Part shown: in pieces, positions 9,519 through 45,232 of the stretch | Layout of the letters: each line of letters begins with the position of its first letter | Position numbering within the stretch: the first letter of the stretch is position 1 | Assembly (NCBI GenBank): GCA_022361175.1 | Contig: JAKSBN010000391.1 | Span: forward strand, 8,457 to 72,456 | Direction of reading: 5' to 3' | From: Pseudomonadota bacterium | Lineage (GTDB): Bacteria > Myxococcota_A > UBA9160 > UBA4427 | Length of the DNA: 64,000 bases | Notes under the pieces: model-generated | The model's input: only the letters and a program-made list of their open reading frames with translations | Databases searched by the model: none | Told to the model about the DNA's origin: nothing | Position numbers and translations under genes: made by a program

Positions 9519-9542
9519 CCGGCGACCGGCGCGATCGGCCCG

Positions 9543-11020: not shown

Positions 11021-12064
11021 CTACCCGGCTGCGCGCAGCACGGCGGCGATCGCGTCCGCCATCTTCTCGTGCCCCAGCGCGTTGGGGTGCGGATCGCCCG
11101 GCATGGCCCAGATGTCCTCCGGCGTCATGCCGGAGAGGGCCGGATACAGGTCGATGTAGGTGTAGCCGTACTCGCTCGCGAGGGACTCGAGCTCGCGGTG
11201 GACGAACTCGAAGGGGTAGTTGCCGAGGTTGTGGACGTCCGGGGTCATCGCCAGGTAGAGCCGGACCTGGCGCTGCTGGGCGTACTCGGCCAGGCGGGCG
11301 AGGGATTCCCGCATGGCGCGATAGCCGGGAGCCTCGGGCGCGTACACGCCTTGGTAGTGCTCGACGAGGCCGCCTTCGCCACCCCGGTAGAGAAAGCGAT
11401 TCATCACGGTCCAGAGCGTGACGGCGAGCTGGCTGTGTCGAAGCAGTGCGTTGCCGCCGCCCGCGTGGAGGGTCTCCGCGTCGTTGATGAAGTAGTGAAC
11501 GACCAGATCGGTGGGCTCGAGCTCGGTCAGGTGCTCCAGGAAGTTGTGCACGTAGCGCACCGCGTTGTAGTTGCCGATGCCGGCGTTCAACACCTCCACG
11601 GACTCGTCCTGGGCGGCCAGTCGTTGCTGGACGCGGGCGGTGACGGTCTCGTCTTCGGGAACGCCCCAGCCCAACGTGATGGAGCTCCCGAGGAAGAGGA
11701 TCCGCCGGCCTTGCCGCGGGAGCACCTTTCCGCCCCGAAGTCCCAGCTCGTTGGTCCGAATCGTGACGGACTGAAGCGTGGCTTCTCGATTGGGAACGTG
11801 CTCGTGGCCGAGGACCGGGTCGTCGCTGGGCCGCTTGAGCTCGCGGGCGTAGCGCCACATCTCGATGTCGTAGTTGGTCATCGAGAGGTTCTTCAGCCGC
11901 AGGGCCCCCTCGGCCAGGAGCAGGCCCACGCTGGCCGAGAATCCCACGAGAATGACGGAGAAGAGCACCTTGCGGGCGGACACGAGCTCGACTGCCTCCT
12001 GCTGCACGGTCGCCGGCACGGTCGCCCGGCCGGGGTGCGCGTACTTCCTTCCCAAGATTCCCAA
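11021..12064 (-). CDS. membrane-anchored SGNH/GDSL hydrolase-acyltransferase, paralog 2 (AlgJ/AlgX/DltD-like partner of the MBOAT)
   Basis: TM (VLFSVILVGFSASVGLLLA), block I FLGSSITLGWG, block V GDPHPNALGH. It sits immediately upstream of the MBOAT. The track start is a TTG; internal GTG starts are possible. Confidence 0.65.
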   Translation of the reverse strand: MGILGRKYAHPGRATVPATVQQEAVELVSARKVLFSVILVGFSASVGLLLAEGALRLKNLSMTNYDIEMWRYARELKRPSDDPVLGHEHVPNREATLQSVTIRTNELGLRGGKVLPRQGRRILFLGSSITLGWGVPEDETVTARVQQRLAAQDESVEVLNAGIGNYNAVRYVHNFLEHLTELEPTDLVVHYFINDAETLHAGGGNALLRHSQLAVTLWTVMNRFLYRGGEGGLVEHYQGVYAPEAPGYRAMRESLARLAEYAQQRQVRLYLAMTPDVHNLGNYPFEFVHRELESLASEYGYTYIDLYPALSGMTPEDIWAMPGDPHPNALGHEKMADAIAAVLRAAG

Positions 12065-12351: not shown

Positions 12352-13635
12352 ATGCGGGAGGCGGCCAGCCAGAGACGCGTGCGGATCGCGACGGCCGGCG
12401 TGTTGGCGGTGGCGTCCCCTCCCGTCCTGGCCGGGCTCTTGCCGGCGCTGGAAGCGGGGGCCGCGGGGCTGTTGCAGGCCGCGCTCTGGCTGGGCTGGAC
12501 TCTGCTCGCGGGTGCCGCGTACCTGTGGGTCGAGCGGGGACGCTGGCGGCCGATCGTGCTGGGCGGTTGGTCGCTCGCGCTCTCGGCGGCGCTGTTCCAG
12601 CTGGTGGGCTCGATGTACCTGGCGAGGAGCCAGGCCGGCGTCCTCCAGGTGGACAACCTGGAGTTCCAGTTCGAGGTCGTTCTCAATTCGCAGGGATTTC
12701 GAAACGTCGAGTTTCAACGGCAGAAGCCACCGGGGGTGGAGCGCACGCTCTTCATCGGCGACTCGTTCGTCTACGGGGCGGCCGTGCCGGAGCGCGAGAC
12801 GCTGCCGCGGATCCTGGAGGCGGAGCTCCCGAAGGCCACGGGGACTCCCCAGGAGTGGTTCAACCTCGGCGTGAACGGGGCGAATACCTTCGGCTACGTC
12901 CAGATCGCGCGGGACTTCCGCGGCTATGAGACGGATCGGGTGCTGCTCGGATTCTACGTGGACAACGACATGAGCCTGCTGCGCAAGCTGCCGCGCCGCT
13001 CTGCCGTGGAAGAGCTCAGTCACCGGCTGGTCAAGCGGCTCCGAGGCCTGCTGCCGCATCCGGCGGCGGACGCCACGGCGGAGCCGGCCTGCATCTATCC
13101 CTGGGTCCGCGACTACAGCGTGGATCCCGCCTATGTGGAGCACGCCTGTAGCGGCCGCATCAACCCGTGGTTCCTGCGCCGGCACGACGAGTCGCCGGAC
13201 AACCACAGCTACTACGAAGAGCTGGGAGCGCGCTTCCGCGAGCACCCCGTGTTGGGGGAGAACATCCTGGCGATCCGCGACGCGTTTCCCGGCGTTCCGT
13301 TCGGGGTGGTGGTATTTCCGTCCCGGTACCAGGTGAGCGCCGACTACTTCGACGAGCTGAAGAAGCTGGGCTTCCGCTTCCGCGAACGCGCGCCTGTCGG
13401 TACCCACCCGCAGCAGGCGCTGTTCGAATACCTCGAGCAACACCAGATCGCGTTTCTCGACCTGCTGCCCGCCATCTTGACCGCGCGGCAGGCCACCGGT
13501 CGAGACCACTACTACCGCATCGACGACCACCTGAATCCAGCGGGGAACCGGTTGGCGGCACGGGAGATCGGTGCCTGGCTCACGTCGTCGGGCGGACCGA
13601 CGAGCGCCAGAAGCTCTTCCAATGGGCCAGACTGA
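12352..13635 (+). CDS. membrane-anchored SGNH/GDSL hydrolase-acyltransferase, paralog 3
   Basis: GGAGGAG lies 5 nt upstream of the ATG at 12352. Multi-TM N-terminus, block I FIGDSFVYG, block V IDDHLNPAGN. Confidence 0.65.
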   Translation: MREAASQRRVRIATAGVLAVASPPVLAGLLPALEAGAAGLLQAALWLGWTLLAGAAYLWVERGRWRPIVLGGWSLALSAALFQLVGSMYLARSQAGVLQVDNLEFQFEVVLNSQGFRNVEFQRQKPPGVERTLFIGDSFVYGAAVPERETLPRILEAELPKATGTPQEWFNLGVNGANTFGYVQIARDFRGYETDRVLLGFYVDNDMSLLRKLPRRSAVEELSHRLVKRLRGLLPHPAADATAEPACIYPWVRDYSVDPAYVEHACSGRINPWFLRRHDESPDNHSYYEELGARFREHPVLGENILAIRDAFPGVPFGVVVFPSRYQVSADYFDELKKLGFRFRERAPVGTHPQQALFEYLEQHQIAFLDLLPAILTARQATGRDHYYRIDDHLNPAGNRLAAREIGAWLTSSGGPTSARSSSNGPD

Positions 13636-14581: not shown

Positions 14582-15514
14582 GTGGGCGACGAACGCCCGG
14601 GGGTTCCAGTGGCTGCGGTTCAAGCGATCGATCTCGACGGCCTGTTGCCGATCCTGCGCTGTCCGCGATCGGGAAGCGCCTTGGAGCGGCAGGGGGACAC
14701 GCTGCGTGCGAGCGAGGGCGGCCACGTCTACTCGCTGGATCGCGGCGTGCCGGACCTGCGGGTGCCGCCGGCGCGGCTGCGTGTGGATTTGCCCTGGTAC
14801 GAGCCGTGGGAGGACCTGGACGCGCTCGAGCTCTCGGGTCCCGCGCCCGCCCCGGCGCCGGATCTGCCCTACCACCTGGACGCCCAGCTGGCCTCGGTCC
14901 CGGGCTCCGACGGTGCCGGCCGCTGGATCCTGGAAGTCGGCTGCGGGGAACGGCAGTGCGAAGGCTACTTCCTGCCGCGCGGCTTCCACTACGTCGGCAG
15001 CGACGTCGACCACCGGGGTCGGGGGCCGCACGTGATGGCCGACGCGCACAACCTGCCGTTTCGAGACGAGTGCTTCGACTTCTACACCTCGATGGCCGTC
15101 TACGAGCATCTGGCCTCGCCGCTGGTCGCCGCGCTCGAGGCGCGGCGCGTCCTGAAACCCGGTGGTGTCATCTTCGGCAGCGCGGCGTTCGTCTACGGAT
15201 TTCACGACCGCGCCAGCTTCCAGCACATGACTCACGCGGCGCTGCTCTGGACCCTGCGCAGCGCCGGCTTCCACGACGTGCGCGTCTGGCCGGACTGGGA
15301 CTACACCGACTCGATCCCGCAGATGGGCTTTCCCGGTGGACAGGGCGCTCCCTGGCGCGTGCTCTCGCGCGCGTTCCTGAAGTTCATGGAGTGGAGCTAC
15401 ACCCGCAGCTCGGCACTGGCCCGGCGCGTGGCGGGCAAGCGCCCCCTGGACCTCACGGCCCGGCGCGCGGAAAAGGCCGGCTCGCTCTCGTTCTCGGCCC
15501 GCCGCTCCCACTAG
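14582..15514 (+). CDS. class I SAM-dependent methyltransferase with an N-terminal Trm112-like Cys motif
   Basis: LRCPRSGSALE N-terminus. SAM motif I ILEVGCGERQ. Motif post-II LKPGGVIFG. Confidence 0.65.
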   Translation: MGDERPGVPVAAVQAIDLDGLLPILRCPRSGSALERQGDTLRASEGGHVYSLDRGVPDLRVPPARLRVDLPWYEPWEDLDALELSGPAPAPAPDLPYHLDAQLASVPGSDGAGRWILEVGCGERQCEGYFLPRGFHYVGSDVDHRGRGPHVMADAHNLPFRDECFDFYTSMAVYEHLASPLVAALEARRVLKPGGVIFGSAAFVYGFHDRASFQHMTHAALLWTLRSAGFHDVRVWPDWDYTDSIPQMGFPGGQGAPWRVLSRAFLKFMEWSYTRSSALARRVAGKRPLDLTARRAEKAGSLSFSARRSH

Positions 15515-16515
15515 CCGCTCCCCTCACTCCGGCTCCAGTAGTGGGCCAGCGAGGTCCCTTCCAGGTAGCGGGCGACGGTTCGCTGCTGCTCGGCGTCCAG
15601 CTCGTCGCGCCACTGGTACGCCGTCTTGGCGGGATTCTTGAAGACGGCGTGGTAGCCCTCGTCGTGGGACGACGTCGAGGCCGCGATGAACTGCTCGGTC
15701 TGGGGGCCGAAGGCCAGGCCGCAGTAGTCGTAGATGCGGCGCACTTCCCGGGCCGGCTCGAGGCACAGATCCTCGTAGACCACGACGTGGAGGTCGCGTC
15801 CCTCCTTCAGCTCGAGCAGCGGCGTCTCGTTGGCCACGATCCAATAGATGAGCTCGCGTTCGAAGTCGGTGCCGTGCTCGTAGGCTTCGGCGTACTTCTC
15901 GTGCTCCGGCCGGGGGAAGGGGAGCACGGTGCTGGACAAGCGGCGCTTGTCCCCGAAACCCGTCCAGCCCTCGCGGCGTGCACCTCGGAGCCAGGAACTC
16001 AGATAGCCGCCCGGGTGGCGCAGGATCAAGACCTTGTGCATGTCGGGCAGCTGCTGGTGCATCCAGGCGAGCCGGAGGTTCGACGTCACGGACTTCCAGA
16101 CGAACACGATCTCGTCCAGCGGTTGGCGCAGCAGAAGATTCGGAATCCGCAGCTTGGGGTCGCGTCGAACGCCCAGCTTGCGAAGCGTGCGGAGCCCCAG
16201 GTTCCAGGCGGCCCAGGGCGCGGGACGCAGGAAGTCCTTGCGAAAGTCCGGCGGCCGGATGAAGTGGAGGCAGTGGGTCCAGAACGCGGCTTCCAGGGCC
16301 GTTGCCAGCGTGTCCGCGTGCGCGGGTTCACCGGCGCCCGGGTCCAGGCGGCTGGGGAGGTCGCGAAACCAGGGCAGGGCGGCCCAGTTGTCCGGCTCGT
16401 GCTTGTAGAGGACGTTCGGGCTCGCGTCGAGCAGCTTGCCCAACCAGGTCGTGCCGCTGCGGCCGGCGCCCGCCACGAGGACGCACCGGGTGGAGATTTC
16501 GGAACGGGCGCTCAT
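15511..16515 (-). CDS. PAPS-dependent sulfotransferase
   Basis: 5'-PSB loop VLVAGAGRSGTTWLGKLL and 3'-PB-like ILRHPGGYLSS. ATG at 16515 overlaps the upstream TGA (ATGA). The upstream 500 codons of ORF 15511..18021 are spurious. Confidence 0.7.
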   Translation of the reverse strand: MSARSEISTRCVLVAGAGRSGTTWLGKLLDASPNVLYKHEPDNWAALPWFRDLPSRLDPGAGEPAHADTLATALEAAFWTHCLHFIRPPDFRKDFLRPAPWAAWNLGLRTLRKLGVRRDPKLRIPNLLLRQPLDEIVFVWKSVTSNLRLAWMHQQLPDMHKVLILRHPGGYLSSWLRGARREGWTGFGDKRRLSSTVLPFPRPEHEKYAEAYEHGTDFERELIYWIVANETPLLELKEGRDLHVVVYEDLCLEPAREVRRIYDYCGLAFGPQTEQFIAASTSSHDEGYHAVFKNPAKTAYQWRDELDAEQQRTVARYLEGTSLAHYWSRSEGSG

Positions 16516-18019: not shown

Positions 18020-18850
18020 ATGAGTGCCGCCGCATCCGAGCTCGACCTGTGGGCCTACTTGAATCCGATCGACGAGGCGGAGCTCCACACTCAGTTCCAG
18101 TCCGCCACACCCACGCGGTACTTCTGCATCGACAATTTCCTGCGCCCGGAGTTCGCCCGCGAGCTGGCGGAGGCGTATCCGAGCTTCGAAGACGCCAAGC
18201 CCCAGGGGCGCGAGTTCAAGTGGACGAACGAGCGGGTGAAGGTGCAGATCACCGACTCCGGACGCTTTCCGGAGCCGGTGGCCCGGCTCCACGAGATCGT
18301 GGCCAGTTCGGAGCTGCGGAGCCTGCTCGGCCGCGTCACGGAGATCCCCGACCTGCTGGCCGACCCGGAGCTGGCCGGGGGCGGCATGCACGTGATGGGT
18401 CCCAGCGGACTGCTGGACGTGCACGTCGACTTCAACATGCTTCGCGACCGGGGGCTTCACCGCAGACTCAACATTCTGGTGTACCTCACGCCGGACTGGC
18501 AGGAGGAATGGGACGGCTGCTTCGAGTTCTGGGATCCGTCGGTGCGGGTCCGCACCGCCAACCTGTTCCCCGTCTTCAACCGCTGCGTCCTGTTCGCCAC
18601 CACCCAGGAGAGCTTCCACGGTGTCTCGGCCATCCGCTGTCCGGAGGGACGAACGCGCAACTCCTTCGCCTCCTACTACTACACCGAGGCTCCGCCGGCG
18701 GGCTGGGACGGGAAGTTCCACGACACCATCTACAAGCCGCGACCCGGCGAGTGGTACAAGGGGTACGTGCAGATGCCGCGCGAGAAGGTAACCCGCGGCA
18801 TCATGCGCCGGGTCCGGCGGACGATTCGTCAGCTCAGGGGACAGGAGTAG
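18020..18850 (+). CDS. 2OG-Fe(II) oxygenase superfamily protein (prolyl-hydroxylase-like)
   Basis: GAAGGAGA lies 8 nt upstream of the ATG. HxD (LLDVHVDFN), distal His (ESFHGVS) and Arg (RNSFASYYY). Confidence 0.65.
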   Translation: MSAAASELDLWAYLNPIDEAELHTQFQSATPTRYFCIDNFLRPEFARELAEAYPSFEDAKPQGREFKWTNERVKVQITDSGRFPEPVARLHEIVASSELRSLLGRVTEIPDLLADPELAGGGMHVMGPSGLLDVHVDFNMLRDRGLHRRLNILVYLTPDWQEEWDGCFEFWDPSVRVRTANLFPVFNRCVLFATTQESFHGVSAIRCPEGRTRNSFASYYYTEAPPAGWDGKFHDTIYKPRPGEWYKGYVQMPREKVTRGIMRRVRRTIRQLRGQE

Positions 18851-20477
18851 CCTCCACCGCGAGCTCGGGGGCCTCGCGCAGGCGGTAGACGACGGCGAAC
18901 GCGTCGTCCCGCGCGACGACTCGATACAGCGCGCCGCCGTCCAGCTTGTTCGGTTCGCGCTGCCACAAGGCGAAGCGCGCGGCCTCCTCATAGGCCGCGG
19001 CGAGACCGTCCCACACGATCCCCGCGGTCTCGTGCGGAGCGACGCCGGGCCCCTCCTTGACGACGACGAAGCGGGGGCGGGAGTCCATGATGCGGCGAAT
19101 CTCGTCGCTCTGGTCCACCTCCAGCGCCGCCGCACCGGGCTTGCTCAGCAGGTGCAGAGAAAAGGGAAAGCGCGTGGGGATGGCGCCGCCGGCCAGGTGG
19201 TAGACCACGTGCTGGTAGTTGTAGACGTAGAGGGAGTCGCCCGGCTGCAGCTCTGCACGGATGGCGGCAGCCACGTGCCGCGGGACGTCGTCGCGATGGA
19301 AGTCCCCGTGAACGGCGTTGCGGGCCAGGCGCAGAGCGCGCCAGCCCAGCTCGCCGGCGGGTCCGGAAAAGAAGACGAAGGCCAGCAACAGCACCGCGAG
19401 GCCGGTGCGGCCGAACGCCGTCTGGCGGCTGGGGAAGGCCTGCAGCAGGGAGCCGGCGAAGAAGCTGAAGAGCAGGCACAGCGGCGGCAGCAGCTGCAGC
19501 AGGTGGTGATCGAAGAAGCGCCCCTGGGCGGCGACGCTCAGGCCGGCGAGTCCGAGCCAGGCGAAGAGCGAGCCCAACAGCGCGCGCTCTCCCGGCGAGG
19601 GCGCCAGGCGGGGCAGGGCCACGAGCACCGCTGCCGCCCCCACCAAAGCGCCGGAGAAGGCCAAGAGGGCGTTGGCCCCGCGAAGCAGTCCGGCGCCCGT
19701 GATTCCGACTCCGGCGTAGACCCAGTTGAAGACGATCGAGTTCTCGATCAGCACCGAGACCTGGCCCGTCCACCAGTAGGGCGCCATCTGAAGCAACAGC
19801 GTCGCGACGAAGGCGCCCCCGATCAGACTCCCCGCCTCCACGTAGCGGCGAATCCCGTCGGCGAGCGCGAGTCGCTGCCCATAGAGCAGAGCGGCGAAGA
19901 CCAGCGCGAAGGCCAGGAGATCGAAGCCCACCACGAACTTGGTCCCGAACGCGAGCCCGAAGGCGCAGCCGCTGGCCAGAAAGCGGAGCGTGCGGGCCCG
20001 CAACGACTCGGTGCTGGCGCCCAGGGTGGCGTGCAGCAGACCCTGGAGGACCGCCGCGCCGAACACGATCTCGGTGTTCGTGGCCAATCCCCCGTTTACG
20101 GTGCAGAGTGCGGTGTAGGCGAGGGCGCCGACCCAGGGCCCGGGCAGCTGCGGCCACAGCTCGCGGTGGAGCCGGAAGATCGAGTAGGCGCCGATCGCCA
20201 CGGAGAGGGTCCCGAGCAGGCGGATGCTGACGATCCCGCCCCCCAGCAGGAGCTGCGCCAGGGCGAAGAGCCAGTAGATGAGCGGCGGCTTGTGATCCCA
20301 GGACCCCTCGTAGGGCAGCTGGCCGGACAGCACCTCTTCGGAGATCAGGAGATACAGGCTCTCGTCCCAGTCGACGATCGAGTCGAACAGGACCGGAAGC
20401 CGAAGCAGCAGGGCGGTCGCGAGCAGGAGGAGAAAGACGACCCCGTTGCGGCGCTGCGGGCGGGCGGTGACAGCCAT
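18834..20477 (-). CDS. ArnT/PMT-like polyprenyl-phosphate-sugar-dependent glycosyltransferase (GT39/GT83-like, polytopic)
   Basis: About 12 predicted TM helices. First-loop DWDES motif (DSIVDWDESLYLL...HKPPLIYW). Soluble C-terminal domain. Confidence 0.6.
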   Translation of the reverse strand: MAVTARPQRRNGVVFLLLLATALLLRLPVLFDSIVDWDESLYLLISEEVLSGQLPYEGSWDHKPPLIYWLFALAQLLLGGGIVSIRLLGTLSVAIGAYSIFRLHRELWPQLPGPWVGALAYTALCTVNGGLATNTEIVFGAAVLQGLLHATLGASTESLRARTLRFLASGCAFGLAFGTKFVVGFDLLAFALVFAALLYGQRLALADGIRRYVEAGSLIGGAFVATLLLQMAPYWWTGQVSVLIENSIVFNWVYAGVGITGAGLLRGANALLAFSGALVGAAAVLVALPRLAPSPGERALLGSLFAWLGLAGLSVAAQGRFFDHHLLQLLPPLCLLFSFFAGSLLQAFPSRQTAFGRTGLAVLLLAFVFFSGPAGELGWRALRLARNAVHGDFHRDDVPRHVAAAIRAELQPGDSLYVYNYQHVVYHLAGGAIPTRFPFSLHLLSKPGAAALEVDQSDEIRRIMDSRPRFVVVKEGPGVAPHETAGIVWDGLAAAYEEAARFALWQREPNKLDGGALYRVVARDDAFAVVYRLREAPELAVEATPVP

Positions 20478-20484: not shown

Positions 20485-21243
20485 TCAGCCGCGCCTCAGG
20501 TAGCGGAGGTAGATGCGGGCGATCTCCGCGGGCGCGCGCAGGAAGTCGCCGGCCCGCACCTTCGACCCGGCGACGTCCCGCCACGACAGCAGCGGCAGCT
20601 CGTAGATCGCCTCGCTGACCCGGGGGCCGCCGTTCGCGCGCCGGCTGGCGATCATGCGCGCGATCACCTCGACGTCGAAGACCCAGTTGGTCGCGAACGG
20701 CTCGGCGAACAGGGAAGCGGTTTCGTCGCTGGCTCGAAACAGCTTGGCCCCGCACTGGGTGTCGTAGACGCGAAGCCGAAGCAGGTTCGAGACCACGGTG
20801 GCGAACACGCGGCCCAGGTAGTGGCGTCGGCTGTTGCGGCGGATCGAGCGGCCCAGCAGCTGGACGCGGGCGCCGAAGACCACGTCGCGCTGGGGATGCG
20901 TTTCGAGCACGTCGACGAAGCGCGGGATCTCCTCCAGGGGCGTGGAGAGATCGGCGTCCCAGTATCCGACGTAGCGAAAGCCGCGGCGGAAGGCCTCCAG
21001 CATTCCGAGGCGCACCGCGTCGGCCTTGCCGCCGTTCGAACCGCGGTCCACCACGCTGAAGCGCTGCGGGTCGCTCTTCTCCAGGGCGCGCAGCACGCGC
21101 AGCGTATCGTCGGTGCTGCCGTCGTTCACGAAGACGAACTGCAGCTCCAGGCCGTCGGGCCGGAACGCGCGAAACTGCTCGAGCGGGAGCCTGGCCGCCT
21201 CGTTGTAGCAGGGAACGACGATCCCGACCTCGGACACGGGCAC
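20485..21243 (-). CDS. GT2 polyprenyl-phosphate glycosyltransferase (ArnC/DPM1-like)
   Basis: VVPCYNEA...FVNDGSTDDT...GGKADAVRLGM...WDADLSTP...DTQCGAKLF. Confidence 0.75.
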   Translation of the reverse strand: MPVSEVGIVVPCYNEAARLPLEQFRAFRPDGLELQFVFVNDGSTDDTLRVLRALEKSDPQRFSVVDRGSNGGKADAVRLGMLEAFRRGFRYVGYWDADLSTPLEEIPRFVDVLETHPQRDVVFGARVQLLGRSIRRNSRRHYLGRVFATVVSNLLRLRVYDTQCGAKLFRASDETASLFAEPFATNWVFDVEVIARMIASRRANGGPRVSEAIYELPLLSWRDVAGSKVRAGDFLRAPAEIARIYLRYLRRG

Positions 21244-21253: not shown

Positions 21254-22852
21254 CTAGCGATCGGCTTCGAGCCGACGCGCGAGCGCCTTGCGATCCACCT
21301 TGCCGTTCGCGTTCAGCGGGAAGTCCGCGACGCGTCGGATCGCGCGGGGCTGCATGTAGCTCGGCAGCTGTCCCTTGCAGCCGGCGATGATGGCGGCGTC
21401 GTCGTGGGCGTCGTCTCCGACGAAGGCGACGATGCCCTCGGCGCCGCCGGCGGTGACGGGCCATCCCACGGCCACGGCCACGTCGACTCCGCCCACCCGC
21501 CGCAGGACGGCCTCGATCTCCCCGAGCTCGACCCGGTAGCCCTGGATCTTGATCTGGTTGTCCACGCGTCCGAGATACAGGAGGGGAGCGGATTCGTCCC
21601 GCGGCCGCCGCACCCGATCGCCGGTGCGGTAGTAGGTCTCCGTCTGCCCGGGCGGGACGACGAAGGCCGCGTCGGTGCGCTCGGGGTCCTCCCAGTATCC
21701 CAGGCTCAACTGGGGGCCGGCCATCAGCAGTTCGCCCGTTTCGCCCGGAGCCACCTCGCAGAGCGTCTCGTCGGCCACCAGCACTTTCATCCCAGGATAC
21801 GGGGCGCCGATCGGGACCACCCCCTGCTCGGCGTCGGATGCCGCGGTCTCGGGGGCGAAGCGGTAGAGCGTGCACGCGATCGTGAGCTCGGTGGGGCCGT
21901 AGAGGTTCTCCAACACGGCGTTCGGCGCCGCCGCCGCCCACGCCTCGGCCAGGTCGAGGGGCAGCGCTTCGCCGCAGAAGAGCGAGAGCCGAAGACTGGG
22001 GTACTGCCCCGGCCGCAGCTTCCGGAGCTTCTTCAAAACGACCCCCGTCGACGGCACGGAGAACCAGACGGTGATGCCCGAAGCCTCGATGTAGGAGGAC
22101 GGCATCATCTTTTGCTGCAGCGTCGGACAGCACAGACAGGCGCCGCGCTCCCACGCCACGAACATGTCGAAGACCGAGAGGTCGAACGTGAGATCGAACA
22201 TCTGGGAGAAGCGGTCGTCCTCGGACACGCCATAGCGGTCCACCATCGCGGCGATGAACGCGGTGGCGTTGCGGTGCGCCACCATGACGCCCTTCGGCTG
22301 CCCGGTGCTGCCCGAGGTGAAGAGCAGGTAGGCGACGCCGTTCGGATCGACGGCTTCGGGCACCCAGTCGTCCGCCGAGGCCAGATCGCTCGCGCCGAGG
22401 AAGGTGTGGGCCGGCCAGCGCGCGGCCAGGGCCGCGGGATCCGGGGTGTCGGGGAGCAGCAGGATGCGGGGCTCGGCCACATCCGTCAGCAGCGCGTCGA
22501 CGTGGGCCACGCTGGGGCCGTCGACCACCAGCACCTGGCAGCGGGAGCGCTCCAGCATGGCGCGGGTGCGATCGATCGGGAATGCCGGATTCAGAGGGAC
22601 GTAGCCGTGGCCCCGGAACAGTGCTCCGAGAATGGCGGCGAACGCCGTGGGGCTGCGCTGCCCGAGCACGGCCGTGAGCGGAGGCTGCGCGTCGGGGAGC
22701 ACCCGCGCCAACGTCGCCGCAATCGCGGCGGCGCGGGCGCGCAGCTCGGCGTAGGTCAGCGTGAGGCCGTCGACCTCCAGCGCCGGACGCTCCGGAAAGC
22801 GCTCGCTGGAAGCCAGAAAGCCGGATCGAAGTGTACGCAGCGACTCGGCCAT
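21254..22852 (-). CDS. stand-alone adenylation (AMP-binding) enzyme, DltA / amino-acid-adenylation-like
   Basis: Core motifs A3 YLLFTSGSTGQPKGV, A5 NLYGPTE, A7 YRTGD, A8 GRVDNQIKIQGYRVELGEIE, A10 NGKVDRKAL. ATG at 22852 checked in frame. Confidence 0.85.
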   Translation of the reverse strand: MAESLRTLRSGFLASSERFPERPALEVDGLTLTYAELRARAAAIAATLARVLPDAQPPLTAVLGQRSPTAFAAILGALFRGHGYVPLNPAFPIDRTRAMLERSRCQVLVVDGPSVAHVDALLTDVAEPRILLLPDTPDPAALAARWPAHTFLGASDLASADDWVPEAVDPNGVAYLLFTSGSTGQPKGVMVAHRNATAFIAAMVDRYGVSEDDRFSQMFDLTFDLSVFDMFVAWERGACLCCPTLQQKMMPSSYIEASGITVWFSVPSTGVVLKKLRKLRPGQYPSLRLSLFCGEALPLDLAEAWAAAAPNAVLENLYGPTELTIACTLYRFAPETAASDAEQGVVPIGAPYPGMKVLVADETLCEVAPGETGELLMAGPQLSLGYWEDPERTDAAFVVPPGQTETYYRTGDRVRRPRDESAPLLYLGRVDNQIKIQGYRVELGEIEAVLRRVGGVDVAVAVGWPVTAGGAEGIVAFVGDDAHDDAAIIAGCKGQLPSYMQPRAIRRVADFPLNANGKVDRKALARRLEADR

Positions 22853-22860
22853 CTCACCCG

Positions 22861-23112
22861 TCACTCCGTCTGCGCGAAGAACGCAGCGTAGAGGGCGTCG
22901 ATGCTCGCCAGCGCCTCGGGCTGGATGTCGTCCACGTCCACGTCCTCGCCCTTCAAGCTCTCGACGAAGAGGACGAGCTCCACCACGTCCAGGGACGACA
23001 GGATTCCGTCGTCGAGAATGGGGGTGTCGTTCTGGAGCTTCTGGTCCGGGCCGGACTGCGCCCGCTCCAGGATCCAGGCCCGGAGGCTCTCCTTGATCTC
23101 GCTTTCGGACAT
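22861..23112 (-). CDS. acyl/peptidyl carrier protein (83 aa)
   Basis: Phosphopantetheine-site context DDGILSSLDVVELVLFVE. The ATG shares one base with the upstream TGA (TGATG). Confidence 0.75.
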   Translation of the reverse strand: MSESEIKESLRAWILERAQSGPDQKLQNDTPILDDGILSSLDVVELVLFVESLKGEDVDVDDIQPEALASIDALYAAFFAQTE

Positions 23113-23972
23113 CAGAGCTCCGGAGCCTGCTCGAGGATGCCCGTATCCAGGAAGTACTTGACCAGGCGCTCGGAGGCGCGCTCTCGATGGGCACGGCACG
23201 CCGGGTGCTTGAGCGCCGCCTGCCTCGCCGGATAAGCGTCGGGGATCGCGGCATCCCGGTACATGGACGGGTTGTAGAAGTCCGCCCACGACGACCGCAT
23301 GTAGTCGCCGAGCCAGCTTCGCAGGCCGGCGAGGGTCTCCGCGGACCAGGTCGGCGCGAACTCCTCGAACAGGTCCTTCAGGAGCCGCCGACCGAAGGTG
23401 ATGTGCCGGGCTTCATCGGCGTGGTGGATGTTGTTGATCTCGGCCACCAGCGGGTGCAGACGCTTGTCGCGTCCCATGGCGATGTTGTAGTAGTCGCCCA
23501 GCTCCTCGACGATCAGCACCTTGATGAAGAACGTCACGTCCTCTTCGCCCTTGGCGTACTCGCGCGGCAGCACCAGCTTCTTGTAGTTGTAGACCTTCCC
23601 CACGTAGCGGTTGCAGAAGTCCGCGAACATCACCATGTGCTTGTTCTCTTCGTCGAGAAAGTGGTGGATGTATTCGGTGACTTCCGGGTTGCGACGGGAG
23701 TACATCTGGTTGACCAGGCCCTGGATCAGGGGGCGCTCGCCCTGCAGCGTCAGGCTGAAGAAGTTCCCCAGCTCGTACCGGCTGAGGGTGCGCTGGGCGG
23801 GGAGGTCGAGCTCTTCCCAGGCCTCGGTGCCGTAGAGGGAGCACAGCTCGGGCGGCATGAACCAGGCCGAGTCGTCCAGCGTGTCGGGCCACTCGATGCG
23901 CGAGTAGACGTCCCACAGGTGCTTGACCGACTGGTGAGAGAGGCGCACAGCGAGCGCGGTGGTGGCATCCAT
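23112..23972 (-). CDS. ferritin-like diiron oxygenase, AurF/CmlI-like ligand pattern
   Basis: ExxH in FLDEENKHMVMF, Glu in LIVEELGDYY, and H-x3-E-x2-H in NIHHADEARHITF. ATG at 23972 checked in frame. Confidence 0.6.
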   Translation of the reverse strand: MDATTALAVRLSHQSVKHLWDVYSRIEWPDTLDDSAWFMPPELCSLYGTEAWEELDLPAQRTLSRYELGNFFSLTLQGERPLIQGLVNQMYSRRNPEVTEYIHHFLDEENKHMVMFADFCNRYVGKVYNYKKLVLPREYAKGEEDVTFFIKVLIVEELGDYYNIAMGRDKRLHPLVAEINNIHHADEARHITFGRRLLKDLFEEFAPTWSAETLAGLRSWLGDYMRSSWADFYNPSMYRDAAIPDAYPARQAALKHPACRAHRERASERLVKYFLDTGILEQAPEL

Positions 23973-24238
23973 GGCGGGGCCCAGCTCCTCCGATCGATTG
24001 GCTCCCTGGCGCGCGCGGGACCCGGTCGAGTGGTATCGGGTGGGTGTCCTCAGTCCCGGGATAGGTGACACCCCTTGCTCCCAACCCCTGGGAAAGTGTG
24101 GGAAAACCCTGCCTCCACCGAACGGCGCGCTCCTCTGGGGAGCTCGGAGTCTCGCGCCAGGATAGCGCCCGGGGGCGTCTCGGGGGTGCAAGTCCCGCTG
24201 CAGGGCCGCGAAATGGGTACAGGATCGGGGCCCGGGGA

Positions 24239-25360
24239 CTACATCCGCATGGGGCCGTGACCGTCCATGTTCGTGAGGTGCAGGCCCCCGCCGGCCTTCT
24301 CGAAGGGCTCGAGCGCCTTGGTGAGCTCCGGCGAGGCGGCGAAGATGCGCCGGTCCGGGAGGTTCACGAAGCCCTGGGCCGCGAAAGCCGCCACCCAGGC
24401 GGGGTGGGCCTGATTCGAGAAGATGAGGTCGACTCCCCGCTGCTTCAAGAACTGCACGGCTGCGGCCACGACGCTGCCGGCGTCCTCCGGCCGAGCCAGG
24501 GCGTCGATGACGGACCCGACCCGACAGTCTCCGAAGCGGACGTCTCCCTCCATGGGGGTGTCGAGGACGGCGACCCAGCCGAGGGTGTGCCCATCCCGGC
24601 GCACCCGCAGCTTGATGGCGGGAGGCCAGTGCCCGTCCTTCAGCAGCAGGTTCATGGTCGCGGCGTCCCGGTAGGCGATCAGCGCGTACTCGTCGCGACA
24701 GCTTTCCCAGAGCTCGTCGGCCCAACTCCCGAACTCCGAGAAGGGCTCGGCCTCGGCCGCGGGGGCGCCGCCGCCCCGCACGCGCAAGGCCGCGTGCAAG
24801 AGCTTCAGGCCCAACCCACCGAGGCCGGAGAACGCCAACAGGTCCAGGGCGAAACGCCGCGCGGGCGTTCCCCGCAGATAGGCGTTCTGGCGCAGGAACC
24901 GGAACGGCCGCACGACGGCCAGACAGAAGGGCGTGCCGTGGAGCTGCCAACCCAGCCGGCGCAGCATCTCCAGCATGGGCTGCTCGAGCCCGCCGTGCCC
25001 CCAGCTGTAGAGCAGCGGGTACTTCTTCAGCATATCCCGAATCAAGCGCAGCCCCAGCGTGTTGTAGCGGCGGCTCAGGATCCCCTCGGTGATCGGGCCC
25101 TGCCAGTCGGTGACCGTGCGGTCCTCGCCGCGACAGCGAAACTCGTGCGGCTTGAGGGCGAAGGCGCCGCGGACCCACTCGCCGTCCTCGATGGCCAGGT
25201 GATGCTCACGCCAGGTGCGCTGGTCTCCCTCCTTGGGGACCCAGGCGTCCACCGGGCTCTCGTACCAGCGCCAGTGGACCCCGCCTTCCTCCATGCGCCG
25301 ATTGAACGCGCGCACGGCGTCGGTCCAGGCCTCGGTGTACGGCACCACCTCGATCGCCAT
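24239..25360 (-). CDS. two-lobed GNAT-fold acyltransferase, FemAB-like (resembles the PEP-CTERM-locus-associated FemAB family)
   Basis: 373 aa starting MAIEVVPYTEAWTDAVRAFN. Size, position and a duplicated acyl-CoA N-acyltransferase-like layout support the call. No sharp motif, so it rests on context and resemblance. Confidence 0.45.
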   Translation of the reverse strand: MAIEVVPYTEAWTDAVRAFNRRMEEGGVHWRWYESPVDAWVPKEGDQRTWREHHLAIEDGEWVRGAFALKPHEFRCRGEDRTVTDWQGPITEGILSRRYNTLGLRLIRDMLKKYPLLYSWGHGGLEQPMLEMLRRLGWQLHGTPFCLAVVRPFRFLRQNAYLRGTPARRFALDLLAFSGLGGLGLKLLHAALRVRGGGAPAAEAEPFSEFGSWADELWESCRDEYALIAYRDAATMNLLLKDGHWPPAIKLRVRRDGHTLGWVAVLDTPMEGDVRFGDCRVGSVIDALARPEDAGSVVAAAVQFLKQRGVDLIFSNQAHPAWVAAFAAQGFVNLPDRRIFAASPELTKALEPFEKAGGGLHLTNMDGHGPMRM

Positions 25361-32871: not shown

Positions 32872-35058
32872 TCAGCCGCGGGCACCCGGCAACAGAGGCA
32901 GGCTGCGAGCCCGGCGCCCCGTGGCCGCGTAGAGGGCATTGGCCACGGCGGGGGCCACGGGAGGCGTGCCGGGCTCTCCGACGCCGCCCGGGCGGGCGTC
33001 GCTCTCCAGCAGGTGCACCTCGACCCGCGGCGCCTCCGCGAGGCCGAGAATCCGGTAGTCGTGGAAGTTGCTCTGGGCGACGGCCCCGTCGCGGACGTCG
33101 ACCTTGCCGAACAGCGCGCCGGAGAGGCCGAAGAGCGTGCCTCCCTCCATCTGCGCGCGGACGGTGTCGGGGTGCACGACGGTGCCGCAGTCGACCGCGC
33201 ACACGATCCGGTCCACCCGGAACTCGTCTCCGTCTCCCGCGGAGACTTCCGCCACCTGGCAGACGGTCGTCTCGAAGGCGGTGTGCAGCGCGAGTCCCCG
33301 CCCGCGGCCTGCGCCCGGGGGTGCGTCCCAGCCGGCGGCCGCGACGGCGGTCTCCAACACGCGTCGTCGCCGTGGATCTCCGGACAGCAGGTGCCTTCGG
33401 AGGGCGAGCGGGTCCTTGCCGCCGGCGTGGGCGATCTCGTCCAGGAAGCTCTCGACGAAGAAGGCGGTCTGGGAGTTCCCCACGGACCGCCACCAGCCGA
33501 TGGGCAGGGCCGCCGGCACGGACGTGTATTCCACGCGCTGGTGGGGAATCGCGTAGAACCCGCGGTCCGCTCCCTCGACCGCCACGCGCGACGCGGGGGC
33601 GTCGAGCCAGTAGGGCAGCCGCCCGGTGGCCGCATCCGGCAGGGCGTCGGGGACCAGGCCGGCATCGAGCTGCCGCTGCAGCCAGCCCCCGGCCCCCTGG
33701 AGCCAGAGCGGTGAGTCGCGCGCTTCCCAGTGCGGGCCGGCGATGCGCTGCCGCAGCGAGATCGGCCACCCCTCGGCGTCCAGCTCCGCCCACAGGCGGG
33801 CCGCGAAGGCGGGCCGGTAGTAGTCGTGGCGGACGTCCTCTTCGCGGGACCACAGGATCTGCACGGGCCGGCCCACGGCGCGGGAGGCGCGGGCGGCCTG
33901 GAGGGCCGCGTCGGGTTCGAAACGACGGCCGAAGCCGCCCCCCAGGTAGGTGGTGTGGAGCCGCACTCGGTTCACCGGGAGCTCCAGCTCGCGGGCCAGG
34001 GATTCGCGCAGCCGTTTCTGCGCTTGGGTGGGAGCCCAGACCTCGCAGCCGTCCGGCCGGGCGTCCACCGTGCAGTTCTGCGGCTCCATCGTGAGGTGGG
34101 CCAGGAAGGGCACTTCGTAGTCGGCCTCGACGCGCGACGCGACGGCGCCGTGCGCAGCGGGACCGCCGTGCTCGCTGGCCGTGACCCCGGCGGTCTCCAG
34201 CTCGGCCCGGAGCTTGGCGGCGAAGGCGTCGCTGTCGAAGCCGCCCGCCGAAAACGCGGGGCGGGCGGCGTCGAGTCCGCGGCGCGCCTGCCAGTAGTGA
34301 TCGGCCAGGACGGCGATGCCGTCCGGGAGCTCCACCACTTCGCGCACGCCGGTGACCGCCAGGGCGGCCTCCCGGTCGAAGCCCTGAAGCGCACCTCCGC
34401 CCGCCGGCGCGCAGGAGACGGCGCCGTACAGCATGTCCTTCACCCGGACGTCGATGCCGAAACGAGCGCTGCCGGCCACCTTGGCGGGAACGTCGACCCG
34501 CGGCACCGAACGCCCGATCAGCCGAAAGGCAGCCGGGTCCTTCAGGCGCGGTCGCTCCGGAACGGCGAGCGCCTCGGCGCGGGTCGAGACGTCGGCATAG
34601 GCGACCCGGCGACCGCTCGCCGGATGGAGCACGTGACCTTCGGCGGTCTGGCATTCGCCCGCTGGAACGCCCAGCGCCTCGGCCCCGGCGCGAACCAGCA
34701 TCTCGCGGGCGGCGGCTCCGGCCTGGCGCAGGGGTTCGAACGATTTGCGCACGCTCGAGCTGGCCCCCGTCGACATGGGTCGCGACGGCCCCGTCTGCAC
34801 GGGAAAGGCGACGCGGACGCTCTGCCAGTCGACGTCCAGCTCTTCGGCCAACAGCATGGGCAGGGCGGTGTGGATCCCCTGGCCCATTTCCGACTTCTCC
34901 ACGAACAGGGTGGTGACGCCGTCGACGCCGATCAGAATCCAGGGACCGAGGGACGCCGGACCGGCCGCCCGGGCCGACCCCGGCGCGAACCCCAGCAGCA
35001 GCCCCGCGGTGGCCCCGCGCAGGAAGTCACGCCGCTTGAGCTTGATGAGCGCCGGCAC
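32872..35058 (-). CDS. molybdopterin-binding subunit of a xanthine-dehydrogenase-family aldehyde oxidoreductase (IorB-like), with a Tat signal
   Basis: Twin-arginine signal KRRDFLRGATAGLLLG. Family blocks: FVEKSEMGQGIHTALPM, HLTMEPQNC, TYLGGGFGRR, GEPGTPPVAPAVANA. GTG at 35058 lies 2 nt after the small-subunit stop. Confidence 0.8.
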   Translation of the reverse strand: MPALIKLKRRDFLRGATAGLLLGFAPGSARAAGPASLGPWILIGVDGVTTLFVEKSEMGQGIHTALPMLLAEELDVDWQSVRVAFPVQTGPSRPMSTGASSSVRKSFEPLRQAGAAAREMLVRAGAEALGVPAGECQTAEGHVLHPASGRRVAYADVSTRAEALAVPERPRLKDPAAFRLIGRSVPRVDVPAKVAGSARFGIDVRVKDMLYGAVSCAPAGGGALQGFDREAALAVTGVREVVELPDGIAVLADHYWQARRGLDAARPAFSAGGFDSDAFAAKLRAELETAGVTASEHGGPAAHGAVASRVEADYEVPFLAHLTMEPQNCTVDARPDGCEVWAPTQAQKRLRESLARELELPVNRVRLHTTYLGGGFGRRFEPDAALQAARASRAVGRPVQILWSREEDVRHDYYRPAFAARLWAELDAEGWPISLRQRIAGPHWEARDSPLWLQGAGGWLQRQLDAGLVPDALPDAATGRLPYWLDAPASRVAVEGADRGFYAIPHQRVEYTSVPAALPIGWWRSVGNSQTAFFVESFLDEIAHAGGKDPLALRRHLLSGDPRRRRVLETAVAAAGWDAPPGAGRGRGLALHTAFETTVCQVAEVSAGDGDEFRVDRIVCAVDCGTVVHPDTVRAQMEGGTLFGLSGALFGKVDVRDGAVAQSNFHDYRILGLAEAPRVEVHLLESDARPGGVGEPGTPPVAPAVANALYAATGRRARSLPLLPGARG

Positions 35059-35060
35059 GC

Positions 35061-35507
35061 TCAGTCCCCTCCGGCGGCGCGGCGAATCGCTCGGCGAATG
35101 CGCGGGTAGGTTCCGCAGCGACAGAGGTTGGTGATCGACGCGTCGATCTCGTCCTCGCTCGGATCGGGGTTCTCGGCCAGCAGCGCGGCGGCGGCCATCA
35201 CCATGCCCGGTTGGCAGTAGCCGCACTGGGGAACCTGCTCGGCGATCCAGGCGCGCTGCACCGGGTGGTCGGCCGCGGCGGCCAGCCCCTCGATGGTGGT
35301 GATGCGCTGGCCCTCCACCTGGCCCACCGGAACCGTGCAGGCGCGGAGCGCGCGACCGTCCACGTGCACCGTGCAGGCGCCACAGCGCCCGATGCCGCAT
35401 CCGAACTTCGTGCCCGTCAGGTTGAGCCAGTCGCGCAGCACCCACAGCAGCGGCGTGTCGGCCTCGACCGCGAGCTCGACTTCTCGACCGTTGACCGTGA
35501 GGCGCAT
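35061..35507 (-). CDS. (2Fe-2S)-binding small subunit of the aldehyde oxidoreductase (IorA/CoxS-like)
   Basis: Two cluster motifs: [11 protein letters not shown] and CGYCQPG...CRCGTY. 148 aa. Confidence 0.85.
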
Positions 35508-35563
35508 GCTGGGCCGGTTGTCCTTGGGAGGGTGGGAAGAGCGTCGCGAACCGGGAGCGGGTG

Positions 35564-36529
35564 TCAAGCCGAGCCGTTCGCCGGGCGGCGGCGCGGGAAG
35601 AGCGTGTAGCGGAGGAAGTCCCGGAAGAAGTGGGGTGGCTGGGGATAGGGCTTGCGCTGAAGCCAGCACTTGGCGCGACCGAGCAGGAAGCCCGTGATCC
35701 ACAGCGCGTTGGCCAGCCACAGCTGCAGCCGTCCGTGGTTCTTCAGCCAGTAGTGCCGGCGGCTCTCGAACCAGTAGGGCGGGCGGCGCCGGCTCCAGTC
35801 GGTCCAACCGGTGGAGGCCGAGCCCACGTGCTGGACGCGGCTGCTGGGGACGTACCAGGTCGCCCAGCCCGCCGCCTGCGCGCGCCGACAGAAGTCGGCC
35901 TCCTCGAAGTAGAGGAAGTAGCGCTCGTCGAAGGGCCCGATGGCCTCGAAGACCTGGCGCCGAATCAGCATGCTGGCGCCCGCCAGCCAGTCGACCCGCG
36001 TGTCGGTGTGGGGCACGGGTTTGGAGACCACCCAGCGATCCAGCAGCCGACTCACCACGCCGAGGCCGAGGCGGTTCTCGAACTCCGCGGGCAGCGAGTG
36101 GAAGCGAAACGCCGTGTCGTGGGTGGCGCCGTCGGTGCCGTAGATGTGGCTGCCGGCGATCCCCGCCTGGGGGTGGGCTTCGAGAAACTCCACCAGGAGC
36201 GCCAGCGCACCGGGATCGGGCTCGGCGTCGGAGTTCAGGAGGTAGACGTAGTCGACCGGCGGCCCGGTCTCGGCGGCGGCGCGCACCCCCTGATTGACTC
36301 CGTAGGCGAAGCCGCCGTTGCGAGGAGACGCCACCAGGTGGACGCGCTCCTCGGCTCCGAGATCGCGGACGGCCGCCTGGAGCTTCTCGAAGGAGCCGTC
36401 CTGCGAGTCGTTGTCCACCAGGATGACGCGGCTGCCGGGGAGCCCCTCGAGTTCGCGCAGGCTGCTCCGCAGGGCCGCCAGCGTGAGCTCGGGCGTCCGG
36501 TAGTTGATGACGACGACCGCCAGCCGCAT
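35564..36529 (-). CDS. family 2 glycosyltransferase (WbbL/rhamnosyltransferase-like)
   Basis: [12 protein letters not shown]...[10 protein letters not shown]...[11 protein letters not shown]...NSDAEP...[11 protein letters not shown]. The ATG at 36529 shares one base with the PKS stop. Confidence 0.8.
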
Positions 36530-42500: not shown

Positions 42501-42942
42501 AGTCGACCACCTCCGGATTCCCCAGCACGTTGAACATGAAGTAGGAGTTCATGCCGCAGCCGGCGAAGACTCCCACGGACCCCTCGAACGCGCTGGGCGG
42601 ATGCCCGGCGACCTCCAGGGCTTCCCACGCCACTTCCAAGAAGTGCCGGTGCTGCGGATCGAGAATCGCGGCGTCCTTGGGACCGAACCCGAAGAAGCCC
42701 GCGTCGAACAGGGCGACGTCGTCGAGCGGTCCGCCGGCCTTGACGTAGCTGCCGTGCTCCAAAAGCTTGGGGTCCACGCCCGCGTCGCGCAGCTCGTCGT
42801 CGGAGTAGCGCTTCACGCACTCCACGCCGTCGGCCAGGTTGCGCCAGAAGCGGGCCACGTCGGGCGATCCGGCGAAGCGGCAGGAGAGCCCCACCACCGC
42901 GATGTCGGAATCGGAAACTTCGAAGTCGTCGCGTTCGCTCAT
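36529..42942 (-). CDS. single-module type I polyketide synthase, KS-AT-KR-DH-PCP-TE
   Basis: Approximate nt spans follow. KS 41623-42903 (TACSTS, ETHGTGT, NIGHT). AT 40453-41340 (GHSLGE). KR structural plus catalytic halves 38863-40125 ([16 protein letters not shown]). DH 37957-38805 ([32 protein letters not shown]). Carrier 37423-37650 (FFELGGHSL). TE 36568-37371 (GFSGG, GDHDSM). Confidence 0.95.
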
Positions 42943-45230: not shown

Positions 45231-45232
45231 GT

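Follow-up and report, generated by a model that had tools for sequence, protein, structure and literature searches.

A candidate carrier-protein cassette for decorating a polysaccharide with N-oxygenated glycine in an exopolysaccharide locus of a Myxococcota_A bacterium

Two kinds of carrier-protein chemistry that have been described separately bear on the locus studied here: Dlt- and Alm-type loading of an amino acid, and Pvf-, Ham- and Alb-type N-oxygenation of a tethered substrate. The adenylation enzyme AlmE activates glycine and uses L248 and C316 to keep larger substrates out, and IdnL7 accepts Gly, L-Ala and L-Ser (PMC11253843). Among diiron enzymes, the AurF homologues HamC and PvfB oxidise tethered Val (PMC11659414), Alb2/AlmD has been proposed to convert a Gly-derived amine into an oxime (PMC3445576), and LitN is a hydroxamate former (PMC10616846). 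The diiron halogenases CylC and NocO, which carry the motif HxxDExxH, act on acyl chains tethered to an acyl carrier protein (ACP) and loaded by a fatty-acyl-AMP ligase (FAAL) (PMC12101540), and the alpha carbon of tethered glycine is hydroxylated by the MtaG/MelG modules, in which adenylation (A), monooxygenase (MOx) and thiolation (T) domains are arranged as A-MOx-A-T (PMC11411415). Here we describe a four-gene cassette in a 64,000-nucleotide stretch of contig JAKSBN010000391.1 (assembly GCA_022361175.1, hereafter the window), which holds an exopolysaccharide (EPS) locus of ~50 kb. The cassette encodes a 373-residue tandem-GNAT protein of an unnamed family (U373), an AurF-family diiron protein, a stand-alone carrier protein and a stand-alone amino-acid adenylation enzyme (Table 1). 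We propose, with a probability of roughly 45%, that these proteins constitute a thiotemplate decoration cassette in which glycyl-S-carrier is formed, N-oxygenated and transferred to an amino sugar. What is new in this proposal is that these parts are combined, that they stand in a polysaccharide locus, that a branch of the AurF family is linked to glycine and that a tandem-GNAT family would do the offloading. We know of no N-oxygenated glycine group in bacterial glycans, and among the papers searched none reported an AurF-type gene from a polysaccharide or EPS locus.

Genes in the window, whose G+C content is ~70%, were called by third-position G+C together with a listing of open reading frames (ORFs). 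The original prediction, made from the sequence of the window, had described four co-oriented genes joined by a 1-nt overlap and an 8-nt gap, and this arrangement was confirmed: all four lie on the minus strand at the coordinates given there, one base is common to the stop codon of the diiron gene and the start codon of the carrier gene (ctcTGATGtcc), and the carrier stop is separated from the adenylation start by 8 nt (TGAcgggtgagATG). Beyond the coordinates of that prediction, the adenylation gene is followed after 10 nt by a family 2 glycosyltransferase (GT2) gene and, after a further gap of 7 nt, by a GT-C/PMT_2 gene. Because the tight packing runs on through these two genes, the transcription unit in the window comprises at least five genes. 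An intergenic stretch of 266 nt separates U373 from the diiron gene downstream of it, and promoter/terminator, Rfam and tRNA scans gave no match in or near the cassette, this gap included.

The adenylation enzyme is predicted to activate most likely a very small alpha-amino acid, glycine being favoured. In a Pfam scan it matched PF00501 (241 bits) and also PF13193, and the A3, A5, A7, A8 and A10 core motifs that had been claimed for it are all present in the translation (FTSGSTGQPKG, NLYGPTE, YRTGD, GRVDNQIKIQGYRVELGEIE and NGKVDR, respectively). The protein passed the amino-acid adenylation model TIGR01733 (349.5 bits versus a cut-off of 317.4), while the DltA models gave 261–265 bits at cut-offs of 476–560 and the model of the exosortase A-associated acyl-CoA ligase, TIGR03098, gave 224 bits at a cut-off of 592; the enzyme is thus of the amino-acid type and not a fatty-acyl-AMP ligase. 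Its best relatives in the PDB, searched by domain, were 8k4r, IdnL7 (6akd), AlmE (4oxi) and DltA. The ten specificity positions, which were read from real alignments to solved structures, gave the code DLFFLCLIAK. This code is of the AlmE/IdnL7 type, with 7/10 positions identical to AlmE (4OXI, DLHLFCLIAK), 7/10 to IdnL7 (6AKD, DCFFLALITK) and 5/10 to Bacillus subtilis DltA (DLMTMCTVAK). D224 and K518 fill the positions of Asp235 and Lys517, the Leu236/Cys301 pair is retained, and the code is near-invariant among 34 orthologues (DLFFLCLIAK in 23 and DLHFLCLIAK in 9). Since Asp235, Lys517, Leu and Cys are kept and the code hardly varies, the predicted substrate is a very small alpha-amino acid, and we regard the loading of a small amino acid onto the carrier as highly probable. 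Of the 'amino or aryl acid' suggested before, the amino acid agrees with TIGR01733 and the code, but an aryl acid is excluded by the latter. The carrier protein gave weak ACP/DltC-type matches (the best being NF052616 at 5.8e-6), and all 38 orthologues keep the Ser of its L-S-S-L-D motif.

The diiron protein is a full-length member of the AurF family PF11583 (163.7 bits versus a cut-off of 29.6, model positions 4–282 of 282). Its motifs E109-x2-H112, E156/E157 and H183-x3-E187-x2-H190 are, together with E79, invariant (E79, E109, H112, E156/E157, H183, E187 and H190) across 34 homologues of 59–74% identity. The ligands of AurF are E101, E136, H139, E196, H223, E227 and H230. When a profile of the 34 sequences was compared with AurF (E = 1.8), a constant offset of 40 put E156, H183, D186, E187 and H190 on E196, H223, D226, E227 and H230 (residues named in PMC12101540), so that the C-terminal metal ligands align, whereas the three N-terminal ligands (E79, E109 and H112) were assigned by spacing and by their position in modelled helices. 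The resulting set of E79, E109, H112, E156, H183, E187 and H190 is the 3-His/4-carboxylate set of the AurF/CmlI type, which, according to PMC12101540, is largely confined to N-oxygenases. The AlphaFold 2 (AF2) model of the protein (pLDDT 85) resembled CmlI (Foldseek template-modelling score, TM, 0.63) and AurF (TM 0.57–0.61) more than R2lox and the ribonucleotide reductase R2 subunit (TM 0.43–0.54), and no acyl-ACP desaturase, the family with which the original prediction had contrasted it, was among the 50 fold matches listed.

That prediction had taken the extra His as the mark of AurF/CmlI N-oxygenases. The extra His and the AurF family membership are borne out, but since CylC-type halogenases have HxxDExxH too, the extra His alone is no proof of N-oxygenation. 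Nitrogen is nevertheless favoured as the site of attack because of the whole ligand set and the CmlI/AurF fold matches, glycine offering only N-H and C-alpha-H; on these grounds we suggest N-oxygenation tentatively, at somewhat less than even odds. The earlier idea that the substrate is oxidised while tethered is plausible and would be inferred by analogy, since the diiron and carrier genes are translationally coupled and HamC/PvfB, Alb2/AlmD and LitN provide precedents.

U373 is proposed, from its gene fusions, to be a carrier-dependent offloading acyltransferase. Pfam, NCBIfam and PDB sequences gave zero matches to it, even when 40 members were searched at E = 10, and neither the window protein nor 40 homologues matched the FemAB models (PF02388/PF13480 and TIGR03019). 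Its AF2 model (pLDDT 91.5) shows two GNAT folds in one chain, that is, a tandem (pseudo-dimeric) GNAT, and its top Foldseek matches were N-myristoyltransferases, Eis-like proteins and MshD (E ~1e-9, TM ~0.5 over ~380 columns). Of its earlier description as a FemAB-like GNAT, the tandem-GNAT fold therefore stands, but the likeness to FemAB is at the level of the fold and does not extend to membership by sequence. When 1.84 billion representatives were searched with a profile, the family comprised 1295 clusters (50% identity) at E<=1e-3 and 536 at the stricter E<=1e-30, and all homologues are named 'hypothetical protein' in the database. The strongest support for action on carrier-bound acyl groups comes from A-T-U373 fusions: in the distant relatives P0376 and P0380 an A domain with an FkbM methyltransferase insert is followed by a PP-binding domain and then U373, and in P0332 U373 is preceded by an AMP-binding region and then by a GDSL motif resembling that of a carrier. 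Because U373 is here fused directly after the thiolation domain, which is the release or transfer position of a nonribosomal peptide synthetase (NRPS), it would be expected to handle such groups. In two further proteins, P0311 and P0374, a FemAB-like PF13480 domain is fused ahead of U373. The A domain of P0376 has the code DLTKIGHVGK, which we take to resemble the Asp code, and the family may offload amino acids besides glycine.

The cassette is conserved beyond the window. Among 45 related loci with enough flanking sequence for adjacency to be judged, U373, diiron, carrier and adenylation genes were contiguous and co-oriented in 22, diiron-carrier-A was found in 6, U373-diiron-carrier in 1, U373-diiron only in 5 and the diiron gene alone in 11, and the gene immediately upstream of the diiron gene was U373 in 28. 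The genes thus form a conserved unit in a polysaccharide locus and co-occur in relatives, as the original prediction requires. Homologues of the diiron protein at 59–74% identity are found in Myxococcota, Sphaerotilaceae and some metagenome-assembled genomes of Pseudomonadales and Planctomycetota; the sphaerotilacean genera with the cassette are Rhizobacter, Methylibium, Aquincola, Rubrivivax and Piscinibacter. In Piscinibacter sp. HJYY11 a single operon contains genes for a polyketide synthase (PKS), an alcohol dehydrogenase (ADH), two GT2 proteins, U373, the diiron protein, carrier and adenylation enzyme, and then for a WecG-type transferase, deacetylase, GT2, EamA-like protein, HAD/UbiA, PMT_2 and methyltransferase. 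An Sfp-type phosphopantetheinyl transferase is present in three related loci. Neighbours were counted within a distance of <= 10 kb in the 25 loci that have an adenylation gene and >= 8 kb on both sides: U373 was found in 23/25 and, among the facultative neighbours, the deacetylase in 15/25, WecG in 13/25, and homologues of two GT2 genes in 14/25 and 13/25, respectively. In Sphaerotilaceae the WecG and deacetylase genes directly follow the adenylation gene.

A second link to glycine is provided by L056 and L058, which have the remotest of the diiron relatives (43–46% identity). Their diiron genes are divergent to that of a ~1500-aa protein in which a formyltransferase domain is followed by an A domain interrupted by a luciferase-like monooxygenase (LLM) domain and then by a PP-binding domain; it has neither a condensation nor a thioesterase (TE) domain. 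Next to full cassettes, in L010, L015, L047, L048 and L051, the same formyltransferase-A(LLM)-T protein is again encoded. Its LLM domain matched TIGR04020 with 518 bits and is 47% identical to the stand-alone luciferase-like monooxygenase found with a paralogous diiron clade. The A-domain code, read in L056, L058, L015, L010 and L047 (in the last without Lys517), is DILQ(M/L)GM(I/V)WK, which we take to match the canonical glycine code DILQLGLIWK. Since parts that would load glycine thus stand beside diiron genes in two architectures, the diiron family appears to travel with glycine thiotemplate machinery. Both architectures contain an N-acylating element, GNAT or formyltransferase, and this company fits a hydroxamate-type logic; one idea for the product of the formyltransferase-A(LLM)-T protein is a formyl-hydroxamate of glycine. 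Among the window products scanned, there was no LLM/MOx or formyltransferase gene. As side observations, a 2-oxoglutarate (2OG)-Fe(II) oxygenase gene adjoins in L056 and an iron-containing ADH gene in L058, and in L015 (Methylibium) a 372-aa protein without a Pfam match has its gene flanked by the formyltransferase-A(MOx)-T gene on one side and U373 on the other; we considered the latter as a U373 paralogue and rejected this, the two being unrelated by BLASTP.

In the pathway that we propose, the adenylation enzyme would activate glycine, any alternative being likewise a very small alpha-amino acid, and form the thioester on the 83-aa carrier. The AurF-family enzyme would then oxidise glycyl-S-carrier, likeliest at the free amine, to an N-hydroxy or oxime (hydroxyimino-acetyl) product, and U373 would lift this product off the carrier and transfer it to an acceptor. 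The acceptor would be the amine of a de-N-acetylated lipid-linked sugar arising from the WecG-type transferase and the deacetylase. These two are candidate makers of the sugar amine because their genes co-occur with the cassette; as the co-occurrence is facultative, a glycan amine as acceptor is suggested with reserve and may well prove wrong. The butirosin side chain follows the same logic, in which tailoring on a carrier precedes transfer to an amino sugar.

Several points weigh against this proposal. The functions in the cassette subfamilies are predicted from sequence, fold models and gene context. A code of 10 residues is an imperfect guide to whether Gly, L-Ala or D-Ala is the substrate. 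In the Foldseek alignments the diiron protein has only 12–13% identity to AurF and CmlI, and a phmmer search of the PDB with it found neither of them, so that recognisable sequence similarity to characterised AurF/CmlI-type members is lacking. CylC-type halogenases, which have HxxDExxH in common with it, attack C-H bonds (PMC12101540). U373 could N-acylate the tethered amine rather than offload it. Five U373-diiron loci have no adjacent adenylation and carrier genes, and in L009, L024 and L059 there are none <= 10 kb away. The loci with the diiron gene alone and enough flank represent a separate paralogous clade in Sphaerotilaceae (L034, L041, L045 and others, at ~8650-10870 in each locus), 55–57% identical to the window protein, in which the diiron gene occurs without adenylation, carrier and U373 genes and is always divergent from a gene for a ~375-aa luciferase-like monooxygenase. 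Moreover, the deacetylase, WecG and PKS genes are merely facultative neighbours.

Attack on carbon by the diiron enzyme would give a different product, either through alpha-hydroxylation of the glycyl group to glyoxylyl-S-carrier plus ammonia or to a carbinolamide, or through CylC-like halogenation or desaturation. The layout of an adenylating enzyme, a carrier and an AurF-like diiron protein with HxxDExxH is the same in CylA/CylB/CylC (PMC12101540), MtaG-type monooxygenase domains, known for alpha-hydroxylation of tethered glycine (PMC11411415), are found repeatedly with the diiron family, and identity to AurF is too low to fix the chemistry. However, the window protein has EExxH (E108-E109-x2-H112) where the halogenases have QExxH, it keeps E156, the equivalent of the E196 that CylC is predicted to have lost (PMC12101540), and with 286 aa and 78 residues between the ExxH glutamates, versus 154 in NocO, it is not a member of the CylC family; alpha-hydroxylation by the diiron enzyme would also be redundant where an LLM domain already carries it out. 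We therefore consider carbon attack unlikely. The adenylation enzyme and carrier might instead be the loading module of the type I PKS, with glycyl-S-carrier extended by one malonyl unit to a small amino-polyketide acid or lipid that is attached or released. The PKS opens directly with its ketosynthase (KS), heads the cassette-bearing operon in Sphaerotilaceae (Piscinibacter) and lies <= 10 kb from the cassette in 10/25 loci, and the order in the Cyl pathway, A/ACP/diiron and then PKS, is identical (PMC12101540). Most Myxococcota, Pseudomonadales and Planctomycetota loci, however, have no PKS <= 10 kb away, in the window it is 11 kb apart with unrelated genes between, and the fusions put U373 rather than a KS after the carrier, all of which makes this role rather improbable.

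The original prediction had instead joined the cassette to the MBOAT and SGNH genes as a split Dlt-like system, in which the aminoacyl-carrier would serve extracellular esterification of the polysaccharide. Resemblance of the adenylation enzyme to DltA and AlmE, a DltB model as the only NCBIfam match of the MBOAT (1.6e-49) and the SGNH genes adjoining the MBOAT all speak for such a link. The Dlt models nevertheless stayed below their cut-offs (DltA TIGR01734, 261 versus 560 bits; DltC NF003464, 18 versus 68; DltB TIGR04091, 169 versus 375), an MBOAT homologue was found <= 10 kb away in only 5/25 loci compared with the 23/25 for U373, AlgX-type domains in the MBOAT neighbours are typical of O-acetylation, and U373 already provides a dedicated carrier-linked transferase. 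The link is thus unsupported and, in our view, very improbable; the MBOAT and the SGNH/AlgX-like genes look like a separate alginate-type O-acetylation module with extra esterase-fold paralogues. The parallel with exosortase loci fared no better: we rejected the exosortase-associated trio of ligase, ACP and FemAB, since no cassette gene reaches TIGR03098 (224 versus 592 bits) or TIGR03019 (no match), and none of the window products scanned was an exosortase. A thiopeptidoglycan sheath bearing Gly and Cys, as in Sphaerotilus/Leptothrix, was also considered as the product and dropped, because the cassette turned up in no record titled Sphaerotilus or Leptothrix and the papers searched are silent on the genes for the sheath.

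The remainder of the window fits its description as an EPS locus, with genes for a MOP flippase, a Wzy-like protein, a priming phosphotransferase and a Wza-like exporter in addition to those of Table 1. The GT2 protein encoded next to the adenylation enzyme weakly resembles polyprenyl-phosphate sugar synthases, judging from its NCBIfam matches, and other loci showed no orthologue of it close to the cassette; it is co-transcribed with the cassette in this window only. Homologues of the 2OG-Fe(II)_Oxy_3 protein (44–50% identity) recur next to the diiron gene among Myxococcota relatives and stand beside U373/diiron in L005, L006, L009, L024, L052, L054, L056 and L059. The stop codon of the PKS gene is overlapped by one base by a second GT2 gene. 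Between the Wzy-like gene and these GT2/PKS genes lies a long ORF with molybdopterin-binding MoCoBD_1/2 domains of the xanthine-dehydrogenase/aldehyde-oxidase type, which is odd for an EPS locus and whose NCBIfam matches are all far under the cut-offs. Two further regions (1256-6443 and 14681-16515) encode a DegT aminotransferase, a GFO/IDH/MocA oxidoreductase and a hexapeptide acetyltransferase (WbpB/E/D-like), as well as a second polysaccharide deacetylase, a methyltransferase, a sulfotransferase and a flavin amine-oxidase-like protein that passes NF005560 ('hypothetical protein'). The polysaccharide of the window is probably heavily modified.

Table 1. Features of the window and of related loci discussed in the text (coordinates without a prefix refer to the window; those with an L prefix refer to the related locus named)
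Feature	Coordinates	Strand	Family, size and remarks
U373, tandem-GNAT protein	24239-25360	-	373 aa
Diiron protein	23112-23972	-	PF11583 (AurF); 286 aa; start MDATT, GGAGGAG ribosome-binding site upstream
Stand-alone carrier protein	22861-23112	-	83 aa
Stand-alone amino-acid adenylation enzyme	21254-22852	-	532 aa
GT2 glycosyltransferase	20485-21243	-	PF00535; NCBIfam ArnC and PpgS weakly
GT-C (PMT_2, ArnT-like) membrane glycosyltransferase	18834-20477	-	PF13231; weak ArnT match; last gene of the operon in the window
WecG/TagA-family glycosyltransferase	8026-8631	+	PF03808; NCBIfam TarA/WecG-like
Polysaccharide N-deacetylase	8634-9518	+	PF01522; NCBIfam PgaB-like
MBOAT O-acyltransferase	9543-11000	-	PF03062; sole NCBIfam match DltB (TIGR04091)
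SGNH/AlgX-like genes around the MBOAT	6740-7846, 11021-12055, 12379-13635		
2OG-Fe(II)_Oxy_3 oxygenase-like protein	18020-18850	+	PF13640
ORF with MoCoBD_1/2 domains	32872-35742	-	
GT2 glycosyltransferase next to the PKS	35564-36529		
Single-module type I PKS	36529-42942	-	KS-AT-KR-DH-ACP-TE (Pfam scan), without loading module; facultative partner
XrtA/PEP-CTERM-type chain-length determinant, tyrosine kinase and ATPase	43818-47023	-	TIGR03007, TIGR03018, TIGR03015, all under curated cut-offs
Formyltransferase-A(LLM)-T gene	L056:5376-9932	-	~1500-1600 aa
Formyltransferase-A(LLM)-T gene	L058:3572-8227	-	~1500-1600 aa
Formyltransferase-A(LLM)-T gene	L015:2680-7476	-	~1500-1600 aa
372-aa protein	L015:7543-8661	-	no Pfam match

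If the proposed model holds, thiotemplate chemistry with oxidative tailoring would serve polysaccharides, beyond small molecules and D-alanyl or glycyl esters, and a nitrogen-oxygen functional group would be added to the repertoire of glycan decorations; such a group, for example an N-hydroxyglycyl/hydroxamate or a hydroxyimino-acetyl (oxime) amide, would bind metal or be redox-active. The broadest form of the idea, namely that many Myxococcota and Sphaerotilaceae bear N-oxygenated glycine on a surface polysaccharide by way of a carrier and a new class of tandem-GNAT offloaders that also ends some NRPS-like proteins, is speculative and seems to us improbable at present. The diiron proteins form a well-populated, glycine-linked branch of the AurF family that is distant from every characterised member, and for U373, a large family without a Pfam model, a testable function as an NRPS-type release or transfer domain can be proposed. 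Piscinibacter sp. HJYY11 is a cultured carrier of the cassette, in which genetics and polysaccharide analysis are feasible.

Compared with the described systems, the first part of the cassette is closest to AlmE/AlmF/AlmG, which place glycine on lipid A in Vibrio cholerae, and to DltA/C/B/D, which place D-alanine on teichoic acids: there as here, a stand-alone A enzyme and a carrier load a very small amino acid for a surface glycoconjugate, and the 7/10 code residues that AlmE has in common with the window enzyme include the glycine-limiting Leu/Cys pair (PMC11253843). The systems differ in the final transferase, which is a tandem GNAT here, an LPLAT in AlmG and an MBOAT in DltB, and in the diiron oxidase between loading and transfer, which is present here, unlike in Alm and Dlt. 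For the oxidation step, the nearest counterparts are HamC/PvfB and Alb2/AlmD, in which AurF-family enzymes oxidise a free amine bound to a thiotemplate, L-Val in ham and pvf and a Gly-derived amine to an oxime in althiomycin (PMC11659414, PMC3445576). Those are small-molecule pathways with multidomain NRPSs, whereas the partners here are discrete, stand in a polysaccharide locus and would release the product through a GNAT; this comparison was made by description only. CylA/CylB/CylC and NocL/NocM/NocO have the same three-part layout and HxxDExxH (PMC12101540). By their published descriptions, CylC-type proteins are set apart from the cassette, which has EExxH and not QExxH, an invariant E156/E157, and an amino-acid A enzyme instead of a FAAL, and CylC/NocO are longer than the 286-aa window protein. 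AurF and CmlI share with the window protein the Pfam family, the 3-His/4-carboxylate ligands and the best structural match, but their substrates are arylamines, which the A-domain code excludes here, and at 12–13% identity there is no pairwise sequence match. In the A-MOx-T proteins of the MtaG/MelG type the point of contact is the formyltransferase-A(MOx)-T protein with a glycine code beside relatives of the diiron gene, the window itself being without such a gene (PMC11411415). Finally, FemXAB proteins and the exosortase-associated FemAB-like protein and ligase (TIGR03019, TIGR03098) have in common with the cassette the tandem-GNAT fold and an EPS locus with XrtA-type genes; U373 matches none of PF02388, PF13480 and TIGR03019, and P0311 contains a FemAB-like domain and U373 as separate domains of one fusion.

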